Assembly: GCA_040004775.1 (NCBI GenBank)
Contig: JBDUAD010000001.1
Span: 27,453-91,452, forward strand
Source of the DNA: a bacterium
GTDB lineage: Bacteria > Actinomycetota > Actinomycetes > Mycobacteriales > Jatrophihabitantaceae
Direction of reading: 5' to 3'
Length of the DNA stretch: 64,000 nt
The position numbers and the translations under genes were made by a program. Positions 30,093-38,886 of this stretch are shown here, in pieces. Each line of letters opens with the position of its first letter. The first letter of the stretch is position 1. The notes under the pieces are model-generated. The model worked only from the letters and a program-made list of their open reading frames with translations, was not told where the DNA came from and searched no databases.

Positions 30093-31676
30093 TCAGGCGG
30101 CCATGGCCGCACCGGCGTCAGCCGGCAACTCGTCCTTGTCCGCCTTGATCAGCACGACGATCGTGATGAAGGCGGCGGTGAGCAGGCCGACCCCGATCCC
30201 AAAGGCCACGTGGTAACCGTGGATGAACGCCAGCGGCTGGACCTGGGGCAGGTCGGCCGGCGACTTGAGGTTCGAGGCCAGGTAGGACGTGACCGCGCTG
30301 GCGTAGAAGGTGTTGAGCAACGCGGTGCCCAGCGATCCACCGATCTGCTGGCTGGTGTTCAACATCGCGCTGGCCACACCGGCGTCGTGCCGGGAGACAC
30401 CGAGCAACGCCAGGCTGGACAGCGGCACGAACACCAGGGCCAGGCCCACGCTCATCAGCAGCTCACCGGGTAGGACGTGAGTCAGCCACGCGCTGGTGTC
30501 ACTGATGAAGGTGAACGTGTACAGACCGATCGCGGCCATAGCGCTGCCGAGCACCATGAGCGGCTTGGGCCCGGTGCGGGGCAAGATATTGGACACGAGA
30601 GCCGCGGTGAAGATGATCCCGGCGCTGAACGGCAGGAACGCGAAGCCGGACTTCAGGGCGCTGTAACCGAGGTTGACCTGGAAGTAGTAGGTCAGGAACA
30701 GGAACATCGAGAACAGCCCGGCACCGACGAACAGCGAGGCCAGGTAGGACCCGCCGCGGTTGCGGTCGAGCACGACCCGCATCGGCAGCAGGGGGTGAGT
30801 GGTCCGTAGTTCGACGGCCACGAAGCCGGCCAGCAGGACGACGGACAGGACCAGGAAGGACAGGGTCGAGCTGGCCGACCAGCCCACGCCGTCCTTGGCC
30901 GCCTCGGTGAACCCGTAGACCAAGCTCAGCAGGCCGGTGGTCACCAGGACCGCGCCGGGGATGTCGTACTTGGTGTTGCCCTGCGCCCGGCTCTCGGTGA
31001 CGAAGAAGAGGGCCGCGGCCGCGGTCGCCACGGCGATCGGGACGTTGACCAGCAAGCACCAGCGCCACGAGGCGTACTCGGTGAGCACGCCGCCGAGGAT
31101 GAGGCCGATCGCCGCGCCGCCGCCGGCGATCGCGCCGTAGACGCTGAACGCGCGGGCCCGCTCGCGCGGCTCGGTGAACGTCACGGTGATCAGGGACAGC
31201 GCGGCGGGAGCCAGCAGGGCGGCGAAGGCGCCCTGCAGGGCACGGGCCCCGAACAGCATTGCCGAGCTCTGGGCGATTCCGCCGATGGCCGAGGCGAGGG
31301 CGAAGCCGAGCAGGCCGACGATGAAGATCTGCTTGCGCCCGACGTAGTCGGCGATGCGGCCACCGAGCAGCAAGAGGCCACCGAAGGCCAGGGTGTACGC
31401 GGTAACGACCCACTGGCGATCGACGTCGGAGATGCCGAGGTCGCGCTGGGCCGAGGGCAGGGCGATGTTCACGATGGACGCATCCAGCACCACCATGAGC
31501 TGGGCCACGGCGATGATCGCCAGGGCCAGCCAGCGGTTGGGGTTGGGGCGCGTGAACGCGCTGAACGGCGAGGTCCGCGCCGGTTCGGCGCGGGCGACGC
31601 CGGGCGCGCCGTCGTAGGTCACGACGCCGCCGGTGTCGACGTCTGGGGTCGAACTGGTCATGGTGGTTCCTTCCAC
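30093..31676 (-). CDS. MFS transporter, DHA2 (EmrB/QacA-like, 14-TMS) family
   Basis: 527 aa. LDASIVNIALP and GGRIADYVGRK motifs and numerous TM helices. Confidence 0.9.
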   Translation of the reverse strand: MEGTTMTSSTPDVDTGGVVTYDGAPGVARAEPARTSPFSAFTRPNPNRWLALAIIAVAQLMVVLDASIVNIALPSAQRDLGISDVDRQWVVTAYTLAFGGLLLLGGRIADYVGRKQIFIVGLLGFALASAIGGIAQSSAMLFGARALQGAFAALLAPAALSLITVTFTEPRERARAFSVYGAIAGGGAAIGLILGGVLTEYASWRWCLLVNVPIAVATAAAALFFVTESRAQGNTKYDIPGAVLVTTGLLSLVYGFTEAAKDGVGWSASSTLSFLVLSVVLLAGFVAVELRTTHPLLPMRVVLDRNRGGSYLASLFVGAGLFSMFLFLTYYFQVNLGYSALKSGFAFLPFSAGIIFTAALVSNILPRTGPKPLMVLGSAMAAIGLYTFTFISDTSAWLTHVLPGELLMSVGLALVFVPLSSLALLGVSRHDAGVASAMLNTSQQIGGSLGTALLNTFYASAVTSYLASNLKSPADLPQVQPLAFIHGYHVAFGIGVGLLTAAFITIVVLIKADKDELPADAGAAMAA

Positions 31677-31792: not shown

Positions 31793-32500
31793 CTATCCGC
31801 TGATACCGGGCTCGCGGGAGACGTGGGACACGTCCGCCGCCCTCTGCTCGCCCGTAGGACCCGTGCCCGTACAGCCCTCGGGCGGAGCCGGCCGTGCGGC
31901 CAACCCGTCGATCAGCGGCATGAGGACGGTGTCGACCAGGCGGCCGACGAAGGCTTCGTCGGTCGGCTGGCCGGTGAGGACCATGCGCAGGAACACCATC
32001 GCCGGAGCGATCTGGTGGAACAACTCCAGATCGGCGTCGGCCGGGAGCTGACCACGCTCGATCGCGCGAGCCGTCCAGCGCTGCGCGGCGGCGGTCTTGC
32101 CCTCCACCATCTGCTGGCGCATCAGGCGGGCGAGCTCCGGGTCACTGTGCATGGCGGTGATGAGCCCGGTCATGAGCGGCAGTTCCTGGCTGCCCATGGC
32201 CGCGCACATCGTGCCGAGGCCCTCCACGAGATCGTCGCGGACGCACCCGGTGTCCGGCACCACCGGATCGGCGTAATGACGCAGTTTCAGCGCGTCGACG
32301 ACGAGCGAAGCTTTGGAGTCCCACCGGCGGTACATCGTCGCCTTGGACGAGCGCGCCCGGGCGGCGATGGCGTCCATCGTCACCCGGTCATAGCCCACCT
32401 CGGCGACCAGGTCGAGGGCCGCGTCCAGGATCGCCCGGTCCCGAGACGCGTCGAGGCCGCGGCCTTGACTGGTCTCCGACGGTGCGCTGCGGGCGATCAT
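31793..32500 (-). CDS. TetR family transcriptional regulator (upstream of the MFS pump)
   Basis: ATG at 32500 after AAGGAG. GYDRVTMDAIAARARSSKATMYRRWDSKASLV. Confidence 0.9.
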   Translation of the reverse strand: MIARSAPSETSQGRGLDASRDRAILDAALDLVAEVGYDRVTMDAIAARARSSKATMYRRWDSKASLVVDALKLRHYADPVVPDTGCVRDDLVEGLGTMCAAMGSQELPLMTGLITAMHSDPELARLMRQQMVEGKTAAAQRWTARAIERGQLPADADLELFHQIAPAMVFLRMVLTGQPTDEAFVGRLVDTVLMPLIDGLAARPAPPEGCTGTGPTGEQRAADVSHVSREPGISG

Positions 32501-32564
32501 GGACGTCTCCTTCGATGTTGTGCTGCAGTCACGTAACCGCACTGCACCGACAACTATGCCACGA

Positions 32565-32586
32565 AACGAAACGCAACCGTTTCGTT
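32565..32586. promoter_or_regulatory. Candidate TetR operator palindrome
   Basis: AACGAAACG-caac-CGTTTCGTT, 9-bp perfect arms, about 65-85 nt upstream of the TetR start. Confidence 0.4.
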
Positions 32587-32644
32587 CACCCAGAGTTCAC
32601 ATAGGCGCAGCTCGCGACGTCGCGCGGACTGCCGCATCGTCCGG

Positions 32645-33577
32645 CTAGGCGGCGGGGCGGATCTCCACCGGTCGGTAGACCCAGGCGGTCGCGGGACCGG
32701 TCGCCTGGCAGGTCAGCTTGGCCGGGGAGGAGCGCTCGACCAGGACGCTGATTTCCATCGCGCCCTGCGGCGTGGCCACGCGCACGAGGACGTGCGCCGG
32801 GTCGGTGGAGTCGACCGACAGCACCTGGACATCGCTGGCCTTCGGTGCCTCCTCCAGGGCGTACCCGAAGGCCGCGGCGGCCTGCGCGGCCGGCGGAAGT
32901 CCGACCCGTCCCCGCAGCAGGGCCGGCACCACCTCGCCGCGGTCGGCTACATCGGCGAATTCGGCCGCCGAGAACGACAGGATGCGCCCGTAGACGAGAC
33001 CCACCGGCAGGACGAGCACGTTGGCCGCGAACCGCTCACCGCCGATGTGGCTGCACTCCCAGACCCGTCCCGGCCGGGCCGCGGCCAGCGCCGCGGCCAC
33101 CGGACGGCCCCGCAGCGCGCAACACGGATCGTGCCGGCTGTGCGCGCAGACCAGGTACGTGGGAGCGCGGTCCGGGATGGCCGCCGCCGCGGACGTCGCG
33201 ATGACGTCGGCCGACGGGTCCAGCTCGAGCAATTCTCCGTCCGCGACGAACTCGCCCCAGACCAGGCTCTCCCGACCGGGGCGGCAGTCGGCGAACCCCC
33301 ACCGGCGCGGCTGGGCGCTCGGGCGGCGACCCGGCCGGCGGATGGCCACGACTCGGACGTTGGCCGCACCGAGATCGCGCTCGAGGCGGGCGGCGATCCG
33401 CGGGTCGAACTGCGACTCGCGCAGCCCGCCGCGTCCCCACGGTCCGGGTTGCTCGATCAGCAGAATCCGCGACGCCGGGAACGCGGTGCCGAGCATCGGG
33501 TCACCGCGCAGCTGGGCGAGCATGGCGCAGTTCTCGAGGGAGTCGCGCCACGCCGGGCCGCCGAGGGCGCCGCTCAC
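32645..33577 (-). CDS. Sucrase/ferredoxin-like (thioredoxin-like [2Fe-2S], Apd1/Aim32-type) protein
   Basis: YLVCAHSRHDPCCALRG and ECSHIGGERFAANVLVLP motifs. ATGA overlap with the cupin gene stop at 33574-33577. Confidence 0.8.
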   Translation of the reverse strand: MSGALGGPAWRDSLENCAMLAQLRGDPMLGTAFPASRILLIEQPGPWGRGGLRESQFDPRIAARLERDLGAANVRVVAIRRPGRRPSAQPRRWGFADCRPGRESLVWGEFVADGELLELDPSADVIATSAAAAIPDRAPTYLVCAHSRHDPCCALRGRPVAAALAAARPGRVWECSHIGGERFAANVLVLPVGLVYGRILSFSAAEFADVADRGEVVPALLRGRVGLPPAAQAAAAFGYALEEAPKASDVQVLSVDSTDPAHVLVRVATPQGAMEISVLVERSSPAKLTCQATGPATAWVYRPVEIRPAA

Positions 33578-34896
33578 GACCGGGCCGCGACCACGACGCC
33601 TTCGCGCAGCAGCCGGCGTACGAGGGCCAGCCGCTCGGGGCCGTCGAGGCCGGGCAGGTCGGCCGGCGTGAACTCCTCGTCGTCGAGGACGACCTTGAGT
33701 GCGTCGGATACGGCAGAAGGCAGAGCAATGGTGCTGTCGATGATCCGCAGGCGCAGGCCGGTCTCGTCCTCGTCCAGGCGGTAGCGCAGGCCGGCGCGGA
33801 CGGCGAGGCGGGTGGCATCCGACAGTGCCGCCGCCACCGTGCCCTGGGCCAGCGGTCCCAGCGGAGCCGGTCGGGTGGCGGCGGCCAGAGCGGCACCGAT
33901 CGCGTCGGCGACAGCCGTGAAGTGTTCCGGGGATAGCGCAGCCAGAACGGCGGCCGCGGCGTCGGCGGTCTGCTGCACGTGCGGGGCGAGCACCTCGCGG
34001 TCGGCCAGGTCGCGACCCATGGGCAGCGAACCGCGCAGCGACGGGTCCTCTCCCACCGCGGCGAGCAGATGTCGCAGCACGGTGGCCCGGCTGATCGGGT
34101 GGACACCCACGGTGATGTGGATGGTGAGCTCCTGCAGCGCCTCGGCCGCGTGCAGGAAACCGCGCGGCAGATACAGCGCGTCACCCGGCGCGAGGACGGT
34201 GTCGATCAGGGGTGGTTCGGCCGCGCGGGCCTCGACCTCGGCGCGGCGCTCCTCCCACTTCTCCTCGGGCAGCGGGTCTCGCAGCACCGGCGAGTGGATG
34301 CGCCAGCGCTTGCGACCGGCGACCTGCAGCACGAAGACGTCGTGATTGTCGTAGTGGGCGGCGAAGCCCTGGTTCTGGGGCGGGGTGATGTAGGCGTTGA
34401 TCTGCACCGGGTGGCCCAGCTCGGCGGCCAGCGCGGTCCCGAAACCGATCAGCGGCGGCCACGTGCGGTGCAGGGCCTGGAGAACGAGCGTGGCCCCGTC
34501 GGCCAAAGCGGCGAGGACCTTGTCGTCGGCCACCTGATCGGCGATGCCGGCGCCGGACCCGCCCGAGCGGGTGAACGCCTGACCGGCGATCACCGTGCCG
34601 CCCTTGGCCATGCGCAGGAACGGAGTGCGCAACCCGCGCCGTGAGACCAACTCGTCGACCCCGTCGGCACTCAGCAGGTCCTCGAAGCCGGGTCGACCGG
34701 CCCGCGCGGGGGTGAGCAGGGCGTGCTCGCCCCAGTACTGCTCGGCAAACTGATCGGCCGGTAGGCCGATGCAGCGCTCCAGCGCCGACCCAACGTCGGC
34801 CGCCGACTCCTGGGCTGAGCCGCTGACCGAAGTGCTACTCCGACGGGGGCGACCGGCGCGCCCGGTCACCCCCACCCGAGTGGTGGAACTACTCAC
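33574..34896 (-). CDS. JmjC/cupin_4 domain protein (ribosomal-oxygenase YcfD/RoxA-like Fe(II)/2OG oxygenase)
   Basis: GFAAHYDNHDVFVLQVAGRKRWRI (HxD facial-triad region), LTIHITVGV, and a C-terminal winged-helix-like LALVRRLLREGVV. The GTG at 34896 overlaps the small ORF stop (GTGA); the true start may lie slightly downstream. Confidence 0.85.
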   Translation of the reverse strand: MSSSTTRVGVTGRAGRPRRSSTSVSGSAQESAADVGSALERCIGLPADQFAEQYWGEHALLTPARAGRPGFEDLLSADGVDELVSRRGLRTPFLRMAKGGTVIAGQAFTRSGGSGAGIADQVADDKVLAALADGATLVLQALHRTWPPLIGFGTALAAELGHPVQINAYITPPQNQGFAAHYDNHDVFVLQVAGRKRWRIHSPVLRDPLPEEKWEERRAEVEARAAEPPLIDTVLAPGDALYLPRGFLHAAEALQELTIHITVGVHPISRATVLRHLLAAVGEDPSLRGSLPMGRDLADREVLAPHVQQTADAAAAVLAALSPEHFTAVADAIGAALAAATRPAPLGPLAQGTVAAALSDATRLAVRAGLRYRLDEDETGLRLRIIDSTIALPSAVSDALKVVLDDEEFTPADLPGLDGPERLALVRRLLREGVVVAARS

Positions 34897-35171
34897 GCGC
34901 CGCCGTCGGCGCCGCCATCGTGTGTACCCGGCGAGGCGCCGCCGTCGGCCGGGCCCTCGAGACCGGAGCCGCCACCGGTACCACCGTCGGCGCCGCCATC
35001 GTGTGTACCCGGCGAGGCGCCGCCGTCGGCCGGGCCTTCCAGGCCGGAACCGCCACCGGCACCACCGTCCGCGCCACCGTCCGCGCCACCGTCGGCGCCA
35101 CCATCGGTCACGCCCGGGGAACCGTCGGCTCCGCCGTCGGCCGGGCCTTCCAGGTCGTCACTCAGACTCAT
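34893..35171 (-). CDS. Acidic Gly/Asp-rich tandem-repeat peptide, 92 aa (three LEGPADGGA...DGGADGG units)
   Basis: ATG at 35171 six nt after GAGGAG. G-rich first codon positions. The repeat copies differ by synonymous changes (CTC GAG vs CTG GAA for L-E, GGT vs GGC). Stop overlaps the cupin start. Confidence 0.6.
   Translation of the reverse strand: MSLSDDLEGPADGGADGSPGVTDGGADGGADGGADGGAGGGSGLEGPADGGASPGTHDGGADGGTGGGSGLEGPADGGASPGTHDGGADGGA
34897..35150. repeat. 81-nt tandem repeat: two near-identical copies plus a divergent third
   Basis: gccgccatcg at 34911 recurs at 34992 (period 81 nt = 27 codons). The third copy carries an expanded DGGA tract. Confidence 0.85.
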
Positions 35172-35360
35172 GCGTTCTCCTCACACAGTGGGGACGGTCG
35201 GGCTGCTGCCCGCCCGTGCGCGGGGCCCGGGATCGAGCTCCGCCGCCTCACGCTAGCGACCGGTCGGAACCAGCGACAGGCCCCCCTCGACCATGGCTCC
35301 GGCCGCCGCCGATCGTGCCGTCTCATCCGTCGCAGAAAGCGTCCGAGAGGCGCGCTCGTC

Positions 35361-35786
35361 TTATGGGTCGTCGGCGAGAAGCCACTGCGCAGCCGCGGTG
35401 AGAGCCGCGTCGCTGGTGCTCTCACGACAAAGGGTCCGGGCTCGAATGGTCGTTGTCAGGGCCCACGCCCTTGCGGCGAGGATGGCGACCATTGCGGCCG
35501 CGCGAACCACATTGATGGTGGCGAAGCGGTCCAGGGCGGTCTCGACTGCCGCGGCCGTGACGTCCCCTCGGCGCAGGGAAAGCAGTGTTGGCGCAGCTCG
35601 GGAGGTGGCGGCGGTGTGGGCGACGGTTCCAGCGCCCGCGGCCGCCAGCGCGACAGCTTTGACCATGGTCGGGCGGGCCAGCGGACCGACGAGGACCGCG
35701 GCGAGTGTGCTGAGGACGGTGCCGACGCCCAGGATCGGGTACCAGACCAGGCCATTGCCCAGGTCGGCGGCGCGGACGTAGGTCAC
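35361..35786 (-). CDS. DUF1772-like (anthrone-oxygenase family) membrane protein
   Basis: 141 aa with four hydrophobic segments; WYPILGVGTVLS...RFATINVVRAAAMV pattern. Confidence 0.55.
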   Translation of the reverse strand: MTYVRAADLGNGLVWYPILGVGTVLSTLAAVLVGPLARPTMVKAVALAAAGAGTVAHTAATSRAAPTLLSLRRGDVTAAAVETALDRFATINVVRAAAMVAILAARAWALTTTIRARTLCRESTSDAALTAAAQWLLADDP

Positions 35787-35912
35787 GTACGCGTGCGCGT
35801 CTTTTCGCCGCCGGGCGGGCAGCTGTTTGATGGCTTGGTCAAAGAGCGGCGCCGGCGGCGATGCCGTTGGTCGCGGTGGCCGTGAGGAGAAGCGCCGCCG
35901 TCCAGGACAGGG

Positions 35913-36449
35913 TCACTGCGCACCGTCTCTGCGGGTGGTGGCCATCCGGATGTCCGACTTGGCGTGGTGGATGGCGCGGGCAGTGATGGGGATACCGATG
36001 ACGCTAGGTAACAGCCAGAAAGCGAAGGCGGGCAGGCGGTCCCAGACCGGCAGATGGCGTCCGTTGTCGACGTAGAACGCGGTGAGCATGGCGATGTAGG
36101 ACAAACCCATACCGGCGATGTGTGGGGTGTCGCCGGGTCGGCACCGGCGCCGGTGCTGATAGCCGACGGTGGCGGCGGCAAAGGCGATCAGCCCAATGAT
36201 CGTCAGGTAGTAATCCTGGCGCGGTCGCAGTGCAGTCAACAGCACGGCGGTGACGCACACGGTACGAACGGCGCGGTAGTACCAGCGTCCGATGCGGACA
36301 TGACACGGCGTGCCTTTGTGGGCAAAGGCGGCGGCGGCGCCGGTACCGACGGCGAGGACTGCGGCGAACACGTGCACGCCGAGGACGGCAAGGAAGAGCG
36401 GTGCAGTAGACCCCACCTCGGTACCGAGCGGTCGCGCGGCGTAGACCAT
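35913..36449 (-). CDS. Hypothetical integral membrane protein
   Basis: 178 aa with about five TM helices. Divergent from padR. Confidence 0.6.
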   Translation of the reverse strand: MVYAARPLGTEVGSTAPLFLAVLGVHVFAAVLAVGTGAAAAFAHKGTPCHVRIGRWYYRAVRTVCVTAVLLTALRPRQDYYLTIIGLIAFAAATVGYQHRRRCRPGDTPHIAGMGLSYIAMLTAFYVDNGRHLPVWDRLPAFAFWLLPSVIGIPITARAIHHAKSDIRMATTRRDGAQ

Positions 36450-36472
36450 GACCGCTCCCGTCGCCGAGGACC

Positions 36473-36493
36473 ATACATAGCGTTGCTACGTAT
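36473..36493. promoter_or_regulatory. Candidate PadR operator (imperfect palindrome)
   Basis: ATACATAGC-gtt-GCTACGTAT, arms 8/9 complementary. Lies in an AT-richer divergent promoter region. Confidence 0.35.
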
Positions 36494-36548
36494 TGACGGT
36501 ACTAGCCCTGCTTCCGCGGGGGAAGGGGCCAGGGTAGTCTCACTACCT

Positions 36549-36890
36549 ATGCGGGCGGAGACGCTGAAGGGGCACCTCGACGGCCTGCTGCTGGCTAGTC
36601 TCGAGGACGGCCCGCGACACGGCTATTCGGTGATCGAAGAATTGCGGGCGGTCAGCGGTGGGCAGCTGGACCTACCGACTGGAACCGTCTATCCGGCGCT
36701 GCACCGGCTCGAAACGGCCGGGCTGATCCAGGGCCGCTGGTCAGTGGTCGCCGGGCGGCGCCGACGGGCGTATCAGCTGACCGCGAAGGGACGTCGTGCA
36801 CTGAGCAAGGAGCGGGCGGCCTGGACGCGATTTGCCGCAGTAGTGGGCTCCGTCTTGGAAGGGCGGCAGCCATGCCCCGACCCGACCTGA
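36549..36890 (+). CDS. PadR family transcriptional regulator
   Basis: ATG at 36549. GPRHGYSVIEELR...GTVYPALHRLETAGLI. Confidence 0.9.
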   Translation: MRAETLKGHLDGLLLASLEDGPRHGYSVIEELRAVSGGQLDLPTGTVYPALHRLETAGLIQGRWSVVAGRRRRAYQLTAKGRRALSKERAAWTRFAAVVGSVLEGRQPCPDPT

Positions 36891-37450
36891 TCGAGAGCTA
36901 CCTCACCGAGCTGGCACGTCATCTCCCACCATCTATCGTCACCGAACTAGCCGACGGATTCACCGAGACCTACGAAGTTCACCTTCGCCGCGGCCTGAGC
37001 GGCGAGGATGCGGCACGGATCGCGGTCGCCGAGTTCGGTGAGCCCACGACCGTGATCGCGGCGTTCTCCCAGGTGAACCCGGCCCGGGTTGCGGCGCGCT
37101 CGCTGCTGCTTTTCGGCCCGCTCGTCGGCGCAGCGTGGGCAGCACTCTTGTTGACCCAGCAGGCGTGGACGTGGCCGGTCGCAGCGGCGGCGCGCTTCAT
37201 CTTCGGCGCGGCATTGCTCACCGCGATCGTGCTGCTGAGTGCCGCAGCCCTCGCGACGCGCTACCGGCCAGCCGCACGCAGCGCGGCCGCGGCCTGCGGA
37301 ATCGTGGTCACCCTCGACCTGTGCCTGCTCGGCTACACCACGACTACCGGACTGCTCGACGTGTGGCCCGCGCCCCTGGCCGCGGCATTGAGCATCACCC
37401 GGATCGGCTTCAGCCTGAAACGTCTACCTCAACTCCTAACCGGGTGCTGA
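36872..37450 (+). CDS. PadR-associated membrane protein (permease-prefix domain)
   Basis: LIESYLTELARHLP...DAARIAVAEFGEP N-terminal domain plus four TM helices. 19-nt overlap with padR. Confidence 0.75.
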   Translation: MPRPDLIESYLTELARHLPPSIVTELADGFTETYEVHLRRGLSGEDAARIAVAEFGEPTTVIAAFSQVNPARVAARSLLLFGPLVGAAWAALLLTQQAWTWPVAAAARFIFGAALLTAIVLLSAAALATRYRPAARSAAAACGIVVTLDLCLLGYTTTTGLLDVWPAPLAAALSITRIGFSLKRLPQLLTGC

Positions 37451-37748: not shown

Positions 37749-38825
37749 CTAGTGGGCGCCGGCGGGGCTGGCGTGGATGGTGGCGGCGGTGAGGCGTCGG
37801 ACCTGGTCGAGTAGGTGTGCTTCGGCGTGGTGGGCGAGGTCGTGTGCCTGGGTGAGCGTGATGGTGGGGTCGACGGTGACGTCGGCTTCGGCGCGCAGTG
37901 TGTGCCCAATCCAGCGGATGCGTAGTTCGCGGACTCCGGTGATTCCGGTGACGCTGGTGACGGCGGCAGTGGCTTGGTCGACGAGATCGGGGTCAACGGC
38001 GTCCATGAGGCGGGCCCCGACCTGGCGCACCGCCGAGCGAAGGACGCCTAGTATCCCGACGGTGATGACGAGCCCGATGACGGGGTCGGCCTGTTTCCAG
38101 CCGAGCGCGACACCGACGGCACCGAGCAGGACGGCGAGGCTGGTGAAGCCGTCGGTGCGGGCGTGCAGTCCGTCGGCGACGAGCGCGGCCGAGCCGATGC
38201 GGCGGCCGATGCGGACGCGGTAGCGGGCGACGAGTTCGTTGCCGATGAAGCCGATGATCGCGGCGCCAGCGACGGCCCAGAGGTGGGTGACCGTTCGCGG
38301 GTAGATAAGCCGGTCGATGGCCTCGTAGGCGGCCAGTATGGACGACAGGGTGATCATGGCGATCACGAACAGTCCGCCGAGGTCTTCGGCCCGGCCGTAG
38401 CCGTAGGTGTAGCGCTTTGTCGCCGGGCGGCGGGCCAGGCGGAACGCGATCAGCAGCGGGACGGCGGTGAGGGCGTCAGCGAAGTTGTGCAGGGTGTCGC
38501 CGAGCAGTGCCACCGACCCGGACAGCACGACGACCACGGCCTGAATGACGGCGGTGACCGCGAGCCCGGCCAGGCTGATCAGCAGCGCCCGGCGCCCAGC
38601 TGCGTCCGCTTCGAGGGCCTCGTCAACCTGATCGGCGGCATCGTGGAAGTGTCCGGTGTTCAGCTCCAACACGGCATGCGTGAACCAAGACCACAGCGAC
38701 CACCCGTGCCCGTGGTCGTTGTCATGGCTGTGCCCGTGGTCGTTGTCATGGCTGTGCCCGTGGTCGTGAGCATCGGCCCGTGCGGGCTGGCCGTGGTCGT
38801 CGGGGTGTTGGTGGTTGTGGATCAT
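37749..38825 (-). CDS. Cation diffusion facilitator (CzcD/ZitB-like) metal efflux transporter with His-rich N-terminus
   Basis: ATG at 38825 (MIHNHQHPDDHG...HDHGHSHDNDHGHSHDNDHGHG). HNFAD and HARTD metal-site motifs. The longest ORF starts at a TTG at 38867. Confidence 0.9.
   Translation of the reverse strand: MIHNHQHPDDHGQPARADAHDHGHSHDNDHGHSHDNDHGHGWSLWSWFTHAVLELNTGHFHDAADQVDEALEADAAGRRALLISLAGLAVTAVIQAVVVVLSGSVALLGDTLHNFADALTAVPLLIAFRLARRPATKRYTYGYGRAEDLGGLFVIAMITLSSILAAYEAIDRLIYPRTVTHLWAVAGAAIIGFIGNELVARYRVRIGRRIGSAALVADGLHARTDGFTSLAVLLGAVGVALGWKQADPVIGLVITVGILGVLRSAVRQVGARLMDAVDPDLVDQATAAVTSVTGITGVRELRIRWIGHTLRAEADVTVDPTITLTQAHDLAHHAEAHLLDQVRRLTAATIHASPAGAH
38705..38770. repeat. 24-nt in-frame tandem repeat encoding the His-rich tract
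   Basis: gtgcccgtggtcgttgtcatggct, about 2.5 units; encodes SHDNDHGH. Confidence 0.8.
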
Positions 38826-38886
38826 CGCGGGTCCGGTCCGTCGCTGTGCATCGTTCGACGTAGCCAACGTACCAAGCCCTTCACAG

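Follow-up and report, generated by a model that had tools for sequence, protein, structure and literature searches.

A conserved actinobacterial operon encoding a small acidic repeat protein, a ribosomal-oxygenase-type JmjC protein and a Suc_Fer-like protein

Results

Organization of the operon

In the window (the whole stretch of 64,000 nucleotides analysed here), a three-gene operon extends over positions 32645-35171 of the minus strand and encodes, in this order, a small acidic repeat protein (34893-35171; 92 aa, ATG start), a JmjC/cupin_4 oxygenase, hereafter the cupin (33574-34896; 440 aa, GTG start), and a Suc_Fer-like protein (32645-33577; 310 aa, GTG start). A preliminary description of this DNA had proposed three minus-strand genes chained by start/stop overlaps behind one Shine-Dalgarno sequence, and the three open reading frames were found as placed there. 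Read directly from the minus strand, the stop of the small ORF and the start of the cupin share the 4 nt GTGA at 34893-34896, in agreement with the earlier reading, and the 4-nt overlap between the cupin stop and the Suc_Fer-like start at 33574-33577 is likewise GTGA and not ATGA as had been given. The Shine-Dalgarno sequence GAGGAG is indeed present ahead of the small ORF (35177-35182, minus strand), with a spacer of 5 nt rather than 6 before the ATG at 35169-35171.

Among homologous loci, a 4- or 1-nt overlap is possible at the small ORF/cupin junction in 27 of 58 cases, and the distance is at most 20 nt in 51 of 58. Of 67 loci assessed at the cupin/Suc_Fer-like junction, 39 allow the same 4-nt overlap and 57 have the start within 20 nt. 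The closest homologues of the cupin have in common an N-terminal VGVTG motif directly after the GTG start. Within 4 kb on each side in about 80 loci, the flanking genes are not conserved and the trio alone travels together; it is also present in Mycobacterium and Streptomyces.

The JmjC oxygenase

The second gene had been assigned to the ribosomal-oxygenase (ROX) type of JmjC/cupin_4 proteins with an HxD...H iron triad, an assignment upheld by a match to PF08007 JmjC_2 (E 9.5e-29, bit score 100 with a cut-off of 22; Cupin_8 is also matched) and by alignment to NO66. The best sequence match in the PDB is NO66 (6e-21, at an identity of only about 22%), followed by MINA53 (3e-15) and YcfD (about 1e-8 to 1e-10). 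The same order was obtained when the AF2 model (pLDDT 84) was searched with Foldseek, where full-length NO66 was matched at 1.4e-24 (TM about 0.6, ~455-470 columns), then MINA53 and YcfD, and the JmjC enzyme FIH only at 1.8e-8 (TM about 0.3). The JmjC double-stranded beta-helix core is delimited by the Pfam envelope to residues 163-269 (34090-34410, minus strand). In the residue-by-residue alignment to NO66, which displays the motifs HYD..GRKxW..PRGFxH, the iron ligands H181 (34354-34356), D183 (34348-34350) and H249 (34150-34152) and the 2-oxoglutarate (2OG)-binding K196 (34309-34311), all on the minus strand, fall on the HYD, GRKxW and FIH (here a tripeptide) segments of NO66. This H-D-K-H site is intact in 84 of 84 cupin copies, and an HxT motif (H260, T262) and R245 are invariant. 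A published list (PMC2938197) gives motifs of those bacterial MINA/NO66-like proteins that are nearest to the eukaryotic enzymes; the present clade appears to carry these motifs, with H260/T262 and R245 read as two of the listed features.

A C-terminal beta-beta-beta-beta-alpha-alpha-beta domain (residues 364-437; 33586-33807, minus strand), delimited from AF2 secondary structure and the full-length Foldseek match to NO66, sits where the winged-helix domain of ROX enzymes does, and is a candidate peptide-recognition domain. It is matched by no Pfam model, PqqD/RRE included; RRE-like folds fused to PF08007 have been reported (PMC12710340). As judged from alignment and the structural model, the cupin is a full-length, three-domain Fe(II)/2OG oxygenase of the NO66/MINA53/YcfD type with intact catalytic residues.

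The Suc_Fer-like protein

The third gene product matches PF06999 Suc_Fer-like over residues 135-223 (57.7 bits, cut-off 34.9), as do all of its homologues, and contains the two motifs that had been pointed out before, CAHSRHDPCC and CSHIGGERFAAN. The candidate cluster-binding residues, selected by conservation, lie in C144-A-H146-S-R-H149-D150-P-C152-C153 and C175-S-H177-I-G-G (33038-33148, minus strand): C144, H146, H149, D150, C152, C153 and H177 show no or almost no variation, C175 is retained in 81-100% of sequences, and C17 and C290 are likewise conserved. The protein bears an extra C-terminal beta-sheet domain. Its AF2 model (pLDDT 82.7) had no significant fold match in the PDB by Foldseek (best E 0.067), with a weak match to chain b of the T. 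maritima HydABC hydrogenase (7p8n; probability 0.57, E 0.72). A [2Fe-2S] cluster is a putative assignment, made from Pfam membership and the conserved Cys/His residues. Our literature search found no role for any bacterial Suc_Fer-like member.

The yeast proteins Apd1 and Aim32 belong to the same Pfam family and ligate a [2Fe-2S] cluster through C-x8-C...H-x-G-G-H. Their C-x7/8-C and H-x-G-G elements are presumably shared by the present protein, in which we take the second His of the yeast HxGGH to be replaced, giving H-I-G-G-E. Features conserved here that set it apart from Apd1/Aim32 are C175, two residues before the first His, the CC pair, C17, C290 and the C-terminal beta domain; C175 could substitute for the missing second His of the yeast motif. 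The preliminary description had counted the Fe-S protein as a member of the system. Its gene does follow the cupin immediately in about 73 of 80 loci (~90%), but it is not beside the pair of small ORF and cupin in about 7 of 80, and since the gene is lacking there the protein appears to be accessory rather than core.

The small acidic repeat protein

The small protein of the window consists of MSLSDD followed by three (L)EGPADGGA...DGGADGG units. LEGPADGGA is seen three times in the 92 aa, so that the three repeat units reported earlier are a fair description. At the DNA level, Tandem Repeats Finder detected two 81-nt (27-aa) tandem repeats encoding GLEGPADGGASPGTHDGGADGG(T/A)GGGS (34903-35075, minus strand; 2.1 copies, 93% matches) and 12-nt short repeats encoding (DGGA)n (35057-35107, minus strand; 3.4-4.2 copies). 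The protein is rich in Gly, Asp and Ala and very acidic, lacks Cys, is almost devoid of hydrophobic residues, and is predicted to be an intrinsically disordered polyanion.

Its relatives range from 61 to 195 aa. They begin with an acidic motif, M-x-(L/I)-(N/D/S)-DDD-(I/M)-T-T, which is shortened to MSLSDD in the window, and carry 2 to 7 or more copies of a unit (E)GPADGGA-x2-3-G-x-(H/Q/S/R)-DGGADG(G/S)A. Once the first 12 residues are set aside, 70% of the Asp residues have Ala on their N-terminal side, and the next residue is Gly in 80% and Ser in 11%. His stands directly before DGGADG 113 times (~66% of the cases where this position is not Ala or Gly), and about two thirds of the long units thus read G-x-His-Asp-Gly-Gly. 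Only Gly, Ala and Asp are universal among the residues of the peptides. The protein is rarely annotated, and gene finders usually miss the ORF. The comparative papers on ROX and JmjC enzymes that were consulted do not mention it, and its motifs are absent from the searchable literature.

Evidence that the small ORF is a gene

Taken by itself, the window makes no convincing case for the small ORF as a gene: GC3 is 0.73 in its own frame against 0.86-0.87 in the two open shadow frames that overlap it. In addition, no Pfam or NCBIfam model matches the protein, and its family profile fits only 118 clusters among 1.84 billion representative proteins. A chance open frame in GC-rich repetitive DNA is nonetheless practically ruled out by the comparative data. 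The preliminary description had proposed checking whether cupin_4 and Suc_Fer-like genes occur together with such an upstream small ORF across Actinobacteria. A homologous Gly/Asp/Ala-rich ORF was found directly ahead of the cupin, and on its strand, in all 83 evaluable loci, including those of Mycobacterium, Streptomyces, Rhodococcus, Micromonospora, Agromyces, Cellulomonas and Pseudonocardia. An ATG start is present in 68 of 75 of these ORFs, and an SD-like purine block stands in front of 63 of 75. The repeat region, for which drift out of frame among relatives would have told against a gene, is kept in frame, and differences among close relatives are almost all synonymous: the best pair (L047 and L050) has 23 synonymous changes and 1 non-synonymous, and five close pairs together differ at 124 third, 15 first and 8 second codon positions. 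The DGGADG core, with 381 occurrences, is written with every synonymous codon, and the low GC3 is explained by the frequent use of GGT, GAT and GCT for Gly, Asp and Ala. As this presence in 83 of 83 loci and the in-frame purifying selection settle its coding status, the small ORF is, on comparative sequence evidence, a real protein-coding gene under strong purifying selection in its own frame. With the co-occurrence and the in-frame repeat test both clearly positive, the operon can be regarded as conserved and translationally coupled in Actinomycetota, and its three genes as a functional unit.

Discussion

A candidate dedicated substrate of the oxygenase

Beyond the existence of a real gene linked to an oxygenase, we infer function from sequences and models. 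Genomic context points to the linked small protein, and not to a ribosomal protein, as the substrate of the cupin, overlaps or gaps of at most 20 nt being the rule at both junctions. We give about an even chance to the reading that the hydroxylase has the small disordered polyanion as its dedicated substrate and the Fe-S protein as an accessory. Precedents are the JmjC hydroxylases CzlI (PMC11575548) and BipG (PMC12707348), whose ribosomal peptide substrates are encoded nearby, and the SmaO/SmaX cascade (PMC12186529), where a second iron enzyme comes after an Asp-hydroxylating Fe/2OG enzyme. One point against it is the acidity of the cupin (median pI 5.7, net charge about -10), an unexpected property if this enzyme has to hold on to a polyanion; of the two partner proteins it is the Suc_Fer-like one that is basic (median pI 8.65).

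Under the substrate reading, the acidic N-terminus and/or the repeats of the small protein would dock on the oxygenase, possibly on its C-terminal winged-helix/RRE-like domain, and one residue in each repeat would be hydroxylated. The earlier proposal of Asp, His or Pro as the target in each repeat does not hold for His or Pro as a universal target, as 20 of 75 peptides have no His, 5 no Pro and 4 neither, while all 84 cupins are catalytically intact. The same 20 peptides exclude an NO66-like His hydroxylation across the whole family. Beta-hydroxy-Asp would be the best universal product candidate, because Ala-Asp-Gly is the only context found in every member of the small-protein family. We know of no ROX-type enzyme that hydroxylates Asp; the JmjC enzyme FIH does so but belongs to another clade. 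The His of the G-x-His-Asp-Gly-Gly units would be a second candidate. In the substrates of NO66 and MINA53 the hydroxylated His comes after a Gly-rich loop, and the G-x-His context of most repeats presumably resembles these loops. The basic Suc_Fer-like protein may keep the iron of the oxygenase reduced, or it may act on the hydroxylated polyanion; 2OG oxygenases do not normally need a ferredoxin. The modified small protein would stay inside the cell, where it might chelate metal or report O2, Fe or 2OG status, and would not be a cleaved and exported natural product.

In its most far-reaching form, which we consider doubtful, the operon would represent an unrecognised phylum-wide system of post-translational modification, in which a disordered protein with (Ala-Asp-Gly-Gly)n / G-x-His-Asp-Gly-Gly repeats is hydroxylated at many sites by its own NO66-like oxygenase and, with the help of an unusual Cys/His Fe-S protein, becomes a poly-hydroxy-acid polyanion serving as an intracellular metal buffer or as a switch sensing O2, Fe or 2-oxoglutarate. 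If true, it could reveal the original targets of the enzymes from which the eukaryotic ribosomal histidyl hydroxylases descend, since the cupin clade appears to carry the motifs listed for the closest bacterial proteins.

Comparison with known oxygenases

The view that no system of such composition had been described is borne out for the small protein and for the combination of genes, for neither of which a description was found. The closest counterparts of the cupin are human NO66/RIOX1 and MINA53/RIOX2 and YcfD/RoxA of E. coli and Rhodothermus marinus, which resemble it in having three domains (a JmjC beta-helix, a helical dimerisation domain and a winged-helix-like domain at the C-terminus) and in their HxD...H triad for iron and Lys for 2OG. 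The ribosomal targets of ROX enzymes are an Arg of uL16 and a His each of uL2 and uL15. Whereas these substrates are basic ribosomal proteins encoded elsewhere, the candidate here is a private, polyanionic, non-ribosomal repeat protein that is translationally coupled to the enzyme, and the cupin is followed by a Suc_Fer-like protein. FIH offers a parallel for JmjC hydroxylation within a repeated motif. It hydroxylates the beta-carbon of Asn, Asp and His in ankyrin repeats, with an activity that reports O2; it belongs to a different JmjC clade, and its substrates are folded repeat domains without gene linkage, in contrast to the disordered polyanion proposed here.

Comparable in concept is the conversion of Asp to beta-hydroxy-Asp and then to aminomalonate in a RiPP by the Fe(II)/2OG oxygenase SmaO and the HD-domain enzyme SmaX (PMC12186529). 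Both cases would involve an Fe/2OG Asp hydroxylase followed by an adjoining second iron-dependent enzyme; in the present operon the second gene is Suc_Fer-like and Asp hydroxylation is hypothesised, a distinction drawn from the published description of SmaO and SmaX.

Alternative explanations

The alternative that survives best, though we hold it to be unlikely, is a stoichiometric complex in which the small protein partners the oxygenase, the Fe-S protein or both without being a substrate. It could then be an acidic pseudo-substrate or inhibitor, an rRNA-mimicking chaperone for a basic (ribosomal) substrate, or a carrier that binds Fe(II) or other divalent cations weakly and loads both iron proteins, a role exemplified by the small acidic proteins IscX and frataxin. 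The 4-nt overlaps at both junctions suggest matched synthesis, and translational coupling is at least as compatible with such a complex as with an enzyme and its substrate. The basic Suc_Fer-like protein could bind a polyanion, the cupin being acidic; the cupin is of a type whose known substrates are basic; and no peptide residue besides Gly, Ala and Asp is universal. However, purifying selection keeps the EGPADGGA and DGGADG motifs with a precision beyond what charge mimicry or loose binding of metal would call for, a repeat number of 2 to 7 or more sits awkwardly with a 1:1:1 complex, and the pair of small ORF and cupin persists where the Suc_Fer-like gene is absent.

Improbable, too, is a reading in which the cupin, like YcfD, acts on a ribosomal or some other protein from elsewhere in the genome and the small protein has a separate role, for instance as a hydrophilin, a stress protein or an expression-tuning translated leader. 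The fold and the closest relatives are those of ribosomal oxygenases, and in individual genomes the trio adjoins ribosomal-protein paralogues (S14-L28-L33-L31-CobW-S18 at locus L084, L32 at L085). This neighbourhood is confined to the source loci (L084, or L085/L086) and was not found in the other roughly 80. Moreover, the phylum-wide co-occurrence and the start/stop coupling are hard to explain without a direct functional tie, and a pure leader ORF would not keep a sequence of 60-195 aa under strong purifying selection.

Still less probable is a classical RiPP pathway, in which a multi-core precursor would be hydroxylated in its repeats, cut and exported, for example as a beta-hydroxy-Asp/hydroxy-His metallophore; both hydroxylated residues are classic siderophore ligands. 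A repeated-unit precursor does come first in the operon with a conserved leader-like N-terminal motif (M-x-x-x-DDD-I-T-T), and it is encoded beside the putative modifying enzyme at every evaluable locus, often with an overlapping start. The RRE-like folds fused to PF08007 also speak for such a pathway, as do the JmjC tailoring enzymes known from RiPP clusters, among them the Phe hydroxylase CzlI of curacozole (PMC11575548) and the Orn hydroxylase BipG of biphenomycin (PMC12707348), Fe(II)/2OG enzymes that are, as here, encoded beside a ribosomally made peptide substrate. The top structural homologue of CzlI is YxbC (PDB 1VRB), which is not of the NO66 type (PMC11575548). The CzlI and BipG clusters comprise cyclases, proteases, transporters and other tailoring genes and yield small exported antibiotics from short cores, in contrast to a module of two or three genes with a repeat polyanion of 60-195 aa and a phylum-wide, housekeeping-like distribution. 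The RiPP-like or metal-chelating product suggested earlier would, if secreted, call for a leader protease and an exporter; no conserved protease, exporter or other transporter, further tailoring gene or shared regulator was found within 4 kb on each side in about 80 loci. A signal peptide and an obvious cleavage motif are lacking in the small protein, and the upstream regions of 75 loci yielded no IdeR or Zur box. The MFS/TetR pair adjoining the trio in the window is not seen at the other loci, and the neighbours of the module in many genomes are housekeeping genes (menaquinone methyltransferase, radical-SAM, pyrophosphatase).

Organization of the operon

The three minus-strand ORFs at 32645-35171 form a chain joined by start/stop overlaps, as the preliminary description had reported accurately save for two small details. 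They comprise a small ORF of 92 codons (34893-35171), a JmjC/cupin oxygenase ORF of 440 codons (33574-34896) and a Suc_Fer-like ORF of 310 codons (32645-33577). The 4-nt overlap at 34893-34896 is GTGA, as described; that at 33574-33577 is likewise a 4-nt GTGA and not ATGA, and the Shine-Dalgarno sequence GAGGAG (35177-35182, minus strand) is present, with a spacer to the small-ORF ATG of 5 nt instead of 6 nt. The small protein consists of MSLSDD followed by three (L)EGPADGGA...DGGADGG units; in the DNA, Tandem Repeats Finder reports an 81-nt unit in 2.1 copies (93% matches) and 12-nt units in 3.4-4.2 copies. The cupin ORF matches the Pfam families PF08007 JmjC_2 (E 9.5e-29) and Cupin_8, and the third ORF matches PF06999 Suc_Fer-like with 57.7 bits against a cut-off of 34.9. 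A scan of 32300-35900 returned no promoter or terminator consensus, and there was no Rfam match in the whole window, nor in the operon at a permissive threshold.

Conservation of the small ORF

The DNA of the window has 71% G+C, and the GC3 of the small-ORF frame is 0.73 versus 0.86-0.87 in two overlapping shadow frames that are also open, with shadow ORFs spanning the repeat region at 34769-35401 (+), 34920-35885 (+) and 34889-35104 (-). The gene status of the small ORF is not decidable from the window sequence by itself, and relatives were therefore fetched for comparison. The protein collection contained more than 5,800 cupin homologues at E<=1e-10, and a pattern scan covering a single genome for each GTDB species yielded at least 597 confirmed cupin loci, the best 80 of which (45-77% identity) were kept. 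Among these best 80 of at least 597 loci and three others, the cupin gene is immediately preceded by a same-strand ORF rich in Gly, Asp and Ala in 83 of 83 loci having upstream DNA, the single exception being a locus with only 28 nt of upstream sequence. The best 80 loci belong to Jatrophihabitans, Pseudonocardia, Amycolatopsis, Actinokineospora, Agromyces, Cellulomonas, Cnuibacter, Marmoricola, Kribbella, Micromonospora, Modestobacter, Nakamurella, Cryptosporangium, Rhodococcus, Thermoleophilia/Solirubrobacterales and many uncultured Actinomycetota.

Complete copies of the small ORF were available from 75 loci; ATG is the start codon in 68 of them, and an SD-like purine block accompanies 63. 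The encoded proteins have a median length of 86 aa (range 61-195) and a net charge of about -0.2 per residue, and are composed of 36% Gly, 18% Ala and 17% Asp, with Cys absent and hydrophobic or aromatic residues nearly absent. Their consensus is M-x-x-x-DDD-I-x8-EGPADGGA-x-PG-x-HDGGADGGA-x-EGPADGGA-x-PG-x-HDGGADG-x-A. The motif DGGADG (381 occurrences) is encoded with both GAC and GAT and with the full sets of four Gly and four Ala codons. When small ORFs of equal length from related species were paired, the differences between loci L047 and L050 numbered 0, 1 and 23 at codon positions 1, 2 and 3 (23 synonymous, 1 non-synonymous), and those summed over five close pairs numbered 15, 8 and 124. 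Instead of drifting out of frame among relatives, the repeat region thus accumulates differences mainly at third positions, which indicates that selection acts on the protein sequence and that the small ORF is a real gene, a chance ORF being excluded on this comparative evidence. The copies at three loci (L003, L015 and L037) switch to a shadow frame midway, with tails such as ...EVALMAVPMG..., and the frame of L037 continues into the cupin gene. These three loci belong to a single series of assemblies from uncultured genomes (isolate names MFD...), and the switches are most likely assembly indels in the repeats, the alternative being real frameshifts or slippage.

Annotation and prior description

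A profile built from 28 small proteins matches only 118 clusters among 1.84 billion representative proteins, and several long matches are frame chimeras, so the family is badly under-annotated. The database names are 'hypothetical protein' and, in one evidently spurious case, 'BatC protein'; neither Pfam nor NCBIfam has a family for the small protein of the window, and six canonical members compared at E values up to 10 likewise gave none. The long database homologues P0381, P0323, P0367, P0325 and P0353 were considered as natural fusions between small protein and cupin and rejected, as they are frame chimeras of miscalled or frameshifted genes. Since the GC3 of the shadow frames exceeds that of the true frame, gene finders guided by GC3 would choose the wrong frame or extend the cupin gene upstream. 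This difference probably explains why the small protein is missed, and the shadow frames probably account for frame-chimeric database 'cupins' such as P0381, P0323, P0367 and P0325. The small proteins make up a real, widespread family, largely overlooked by annotation.

The statement that no system of such composition had been described agrees with the searches made: Pfam and NCBIfam contain no family for the small protein, and its motifs occur in no searchable paper. The module was absent from the literature on Suc_Fer-like/cupin proteins, Apd1/Aim32, ROX (the ribosomal oxygenases NO66, MINA53 and YcfD) in Actinobacteria and thioredoxin-like/JmjC neighbourhoods, in a search mostly of papers available without subscription, and it goes unmentioned in the comparative study of JmjC gene neighbourhoods by Iyer et al. 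2010 (PMC2938197) and in two ROX papers. The S. coelicolor genes SCO3422-3424 were considered as a candidate trio and ruled out, SCO3424 being an AbaA/BldB-like regulator.

Linkage of the three genes and their neighbourhood

The Suc_Fer-like gene lies immediately downstream of the cupin gene in about 73 of 80 loci; Rhodococcoides fascians, some Micromonospora and Pseudonocardia kunmingensis lack it. Both junctions are tight: of 58 loci, 27 have a candidate cupin start that overlaps the small-ORF stop by 4 or 1 nt and 51 have one no more than 20 nt away. Between the cupin and Suc_Fer-like genes, a 4-nt overlap is possible in 39 of 67 loci and a start lies within 20 nt in 57. A look-up of annotated small proteins recovered the trio also in Mycobacterium (L082, L083) and on Streptomyces-type contigs (L084, L085, L087). 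The proposed co-occurrence of an upstream Gly/Asp-rich small ORF with the cupin and Suc_Fer-like genes across Actinobacteria was thus found, and together with the tight junctions it upholds the view of the three genes as a functional unit. On this genomic evidence, the small gene is shown to be linked, tightly and phylum-wide, to an NO66-like oxygenase predicted to be catalytically intact, and frequently to a Suc_Fer-like protein.

Clustering of all flanking ORFs revealed no conserved neighbours beyond the trio, and specifically no protease, transporter or regulator. Synteny with menaquinone-methyltransferase, radical-SAM and pyrophosphatase genes is restricted to 10-14 related loci, and the TetR/MFS pair downstream of the operon in the window is absent at the other loci. 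Ahead of the small ORF, no common regulator site was detected in 75 loci, either among IdeR, Zur, DosR, LexA, HAIR and CIRCE boxes or by k-mer enrichment.

For the Streptomyces-type contigs, the trio adjoins an alternative ribosomal-protein cluster S14-L28-L33-L31-CobW-S18 in L084 (2042-4655), an L32 paralogue in L085 (4985-5155) and a DtxR/IdeR-type metal repressor in L087 (6865-7560). Alternative clusters of the first type are typically zinc-regulated, and these neighbours are suggestive of a metal or ribosome link. A zinc/iron link as a general feature was rejected because tblastn found the ribosomal-protein/CobW cluster, the L32 paralogue, the DtxR-type repressor and a His-rich CDF transporter each only at its source locus and at none of about 80 others.

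The oxygenase and the Suc_Fer-like protein

The closest solved sequence relatives of the cupin are human NO66 (6e-21), MINA53 (3e-15), Rhodothermus YcfD (4e-10) and E. coli YcfD (about 7e-9). Its AF2 model (pLDDT 84) aligns over the full length to NO66 in Foldseek (1.4e-24, TM about 0.6), followed by MINA53 and YcfD, while FIH and JMJD5 match at only about 1e-8. Residues H181-x-D183, K196 (GRKRW) and H249 (PRGFLH) align with the metal and 2OG residues of NO66; the H-D-K-H set is kept in 84 of 84 family members, and H260-x-T262 and R245 are invariant. In the model, residues 364-437 form a beta-beta-beta-beta-alpha-alpha-beta domain at the position of the ROX winged helix, and Pfam gave no match on this C-terminal domain. 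According to a recent survey (PMC12710340), PF08007 occurs in fusion with RRE-like folds (peptide-recognition elements of RiPP enzymes), and bacterial homologues have RiPP-like contexts. At the cupin N-terminus, the motif 'VGVTG' is kept in the closest relatives, which supports GTG at 34896 as the start codon. Residues 1-36 (34789-34896) comprise, in the window as in homologues P0004, P0006 and P0009, a short conserved 'T-x-VGVTG' followed by a very variable low-complexity linker, which in P0009 extends to about 150 aa and is made of TEGRGPTPA-like repeats; residues 5-10 form a short strand in the AF2 model.

The Suc_Fer-like protein conserves C144, H146, H149, D150, C152, C153, H177 and mostly C175, as well as C17 and C290. 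Its AF2 model is confident (pLDDT 82.7) and has no significant fold relative in the PDB, so that the [2Fe-2S] assignment rests on family membership and the conserved residues; its C-terminal domain has no Pfam match. We know of no bacterial Suc_Fer-like protein with an assigned role, and a fixed genetic partner offers a starting point for finding one.

Proposed function of the module

Repeat-wise hydroxylation by the oxygenase, one of the two mechanisms raised in the preliminary interpretation, is a reading that we infer and to which we give about an even chance: the disordered polyanion would be the dedicated substrate of the oxygenase, hydroxylated once per repeat, and the Fe-S protein would serve as a redox or processing accessory. 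In the main rival, which we consider unlikely, the small protein would act as a partner without being a substrate, for instance as a pseudo-substrate, chaperone or metal carrier; this reading is favoured by the stoichiometric coupling of the genes and by the basic member of the trio being the Suc_Fer-like protein (median pI 8.65) and not the acidic cupin (median pI 5.67). That the cupin acts on an unrelated ribosomal target is still less likely, as ribosomal-paralogue neighbours were seen in single loci without conservation. As no protease or exporter is conserved, the product is probably a modified protein that stays inside the cell, and a classical exported RiPP is the least probable of these alternatives.

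The general kind of a dedicated-substrate system is already known, since CzlI (PMC11575548) and BipG (PMC12707348) are JmjC Fe/2OG hydroxylases acting on gene-linked ribosomal peptides; in SmaO/SmaX (PMC12186529), an Asp hydroxylase is followed by a second iron enzyme. If a private, gene-linked, non-ribosomal partner is true, it would widen the remit of the ROX enzyme class and provide an easy in vitro substrate for an NO66-like enzyme. To our knowledge, ribosomal proteins are the only partners linked to bacterial ROX-type oxygenases to date.

If every species uses the small protein as the substrate, the modified residue has to be universal. His is lacking in 20 of the 75 small proteins, Pro in five and both in four (L007, L008, L016, L017), and the only residues always present are Gly, Ala and Asp (and Ser). 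Past the first 12 residues, 70% of the Asp residues have Ala in front of them, and the residue after Asp is Gly in 80% and Ser in 11%. The universal residues and this context point to Asp of A-D-G as the candidate target, alongside a candidate His that stands directly before DGGADG 113 times, or in about 66% of the motifs in which a residue other than Ala or Gly holds this position. FIH, which belongs to a different JmjC clade, hydroxylates the beta-carbon of Asp, and NO66 and MINA53 hydroxylate His residues behind Gly-rich loops in the ribosomal proteins uL2 and uL15; the G-x-His context in the small protein appears to resemble these loops.

A distinct small-protein subtype was observed in seven loci (L007, L008, L013, L014, L016, L017, L075), in which the EGPADGGA...H unit is absent and GDGGADGAADAGGDGGAG-type repeats are found, often with a single Phe, Tyr or His ahead of DGGADG. 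Its hosts are mostly uncultured Actinomycetota, one being labelled Pseudonocardiales, and it could help to map enzyme residues that co-vary with the peptide type.

Other features near the operon

A perfect 9+9 nt palindrome, AACGAAACG-N4-CGTTTCGTT, is located at 32565-32586, within the 102 nt that separate the Suc_Fer-like stop from a TetR gene (31793-32542, minus strand); an MFS transporter gene (30093-31676, minus strand) comes after the TetR gene. The palindrome resembles a TetR operator belonging to a separate efflux unit. The listed start of the TetR gene is the GTG at 32542; an ATG near 32500 with GAAGGAG just upstream is a better one. About 2.5 kb upstream of the operon, a cation-diffusion-facilitator transporter (Cation_efflux and ZT_dimer domains; 37749-38867, minus strand) carries a long His/Asp-rich N-terminus, HDHGHSHDNDHGHSHDNDHGHG; it is absent near the trio at other loci. 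Two minus-strand ORFs at 35361-35786 and 35913-36449, both without Pfam match, are divergent from a plus-strand pair at 36054-37450 that encodes a PadR-family regulator and, behind it, a membrane protein of 192 aa with a weak HAAS-domain match; the PadR ORF as listed (278 aa) probably begins well ahead of the real start.
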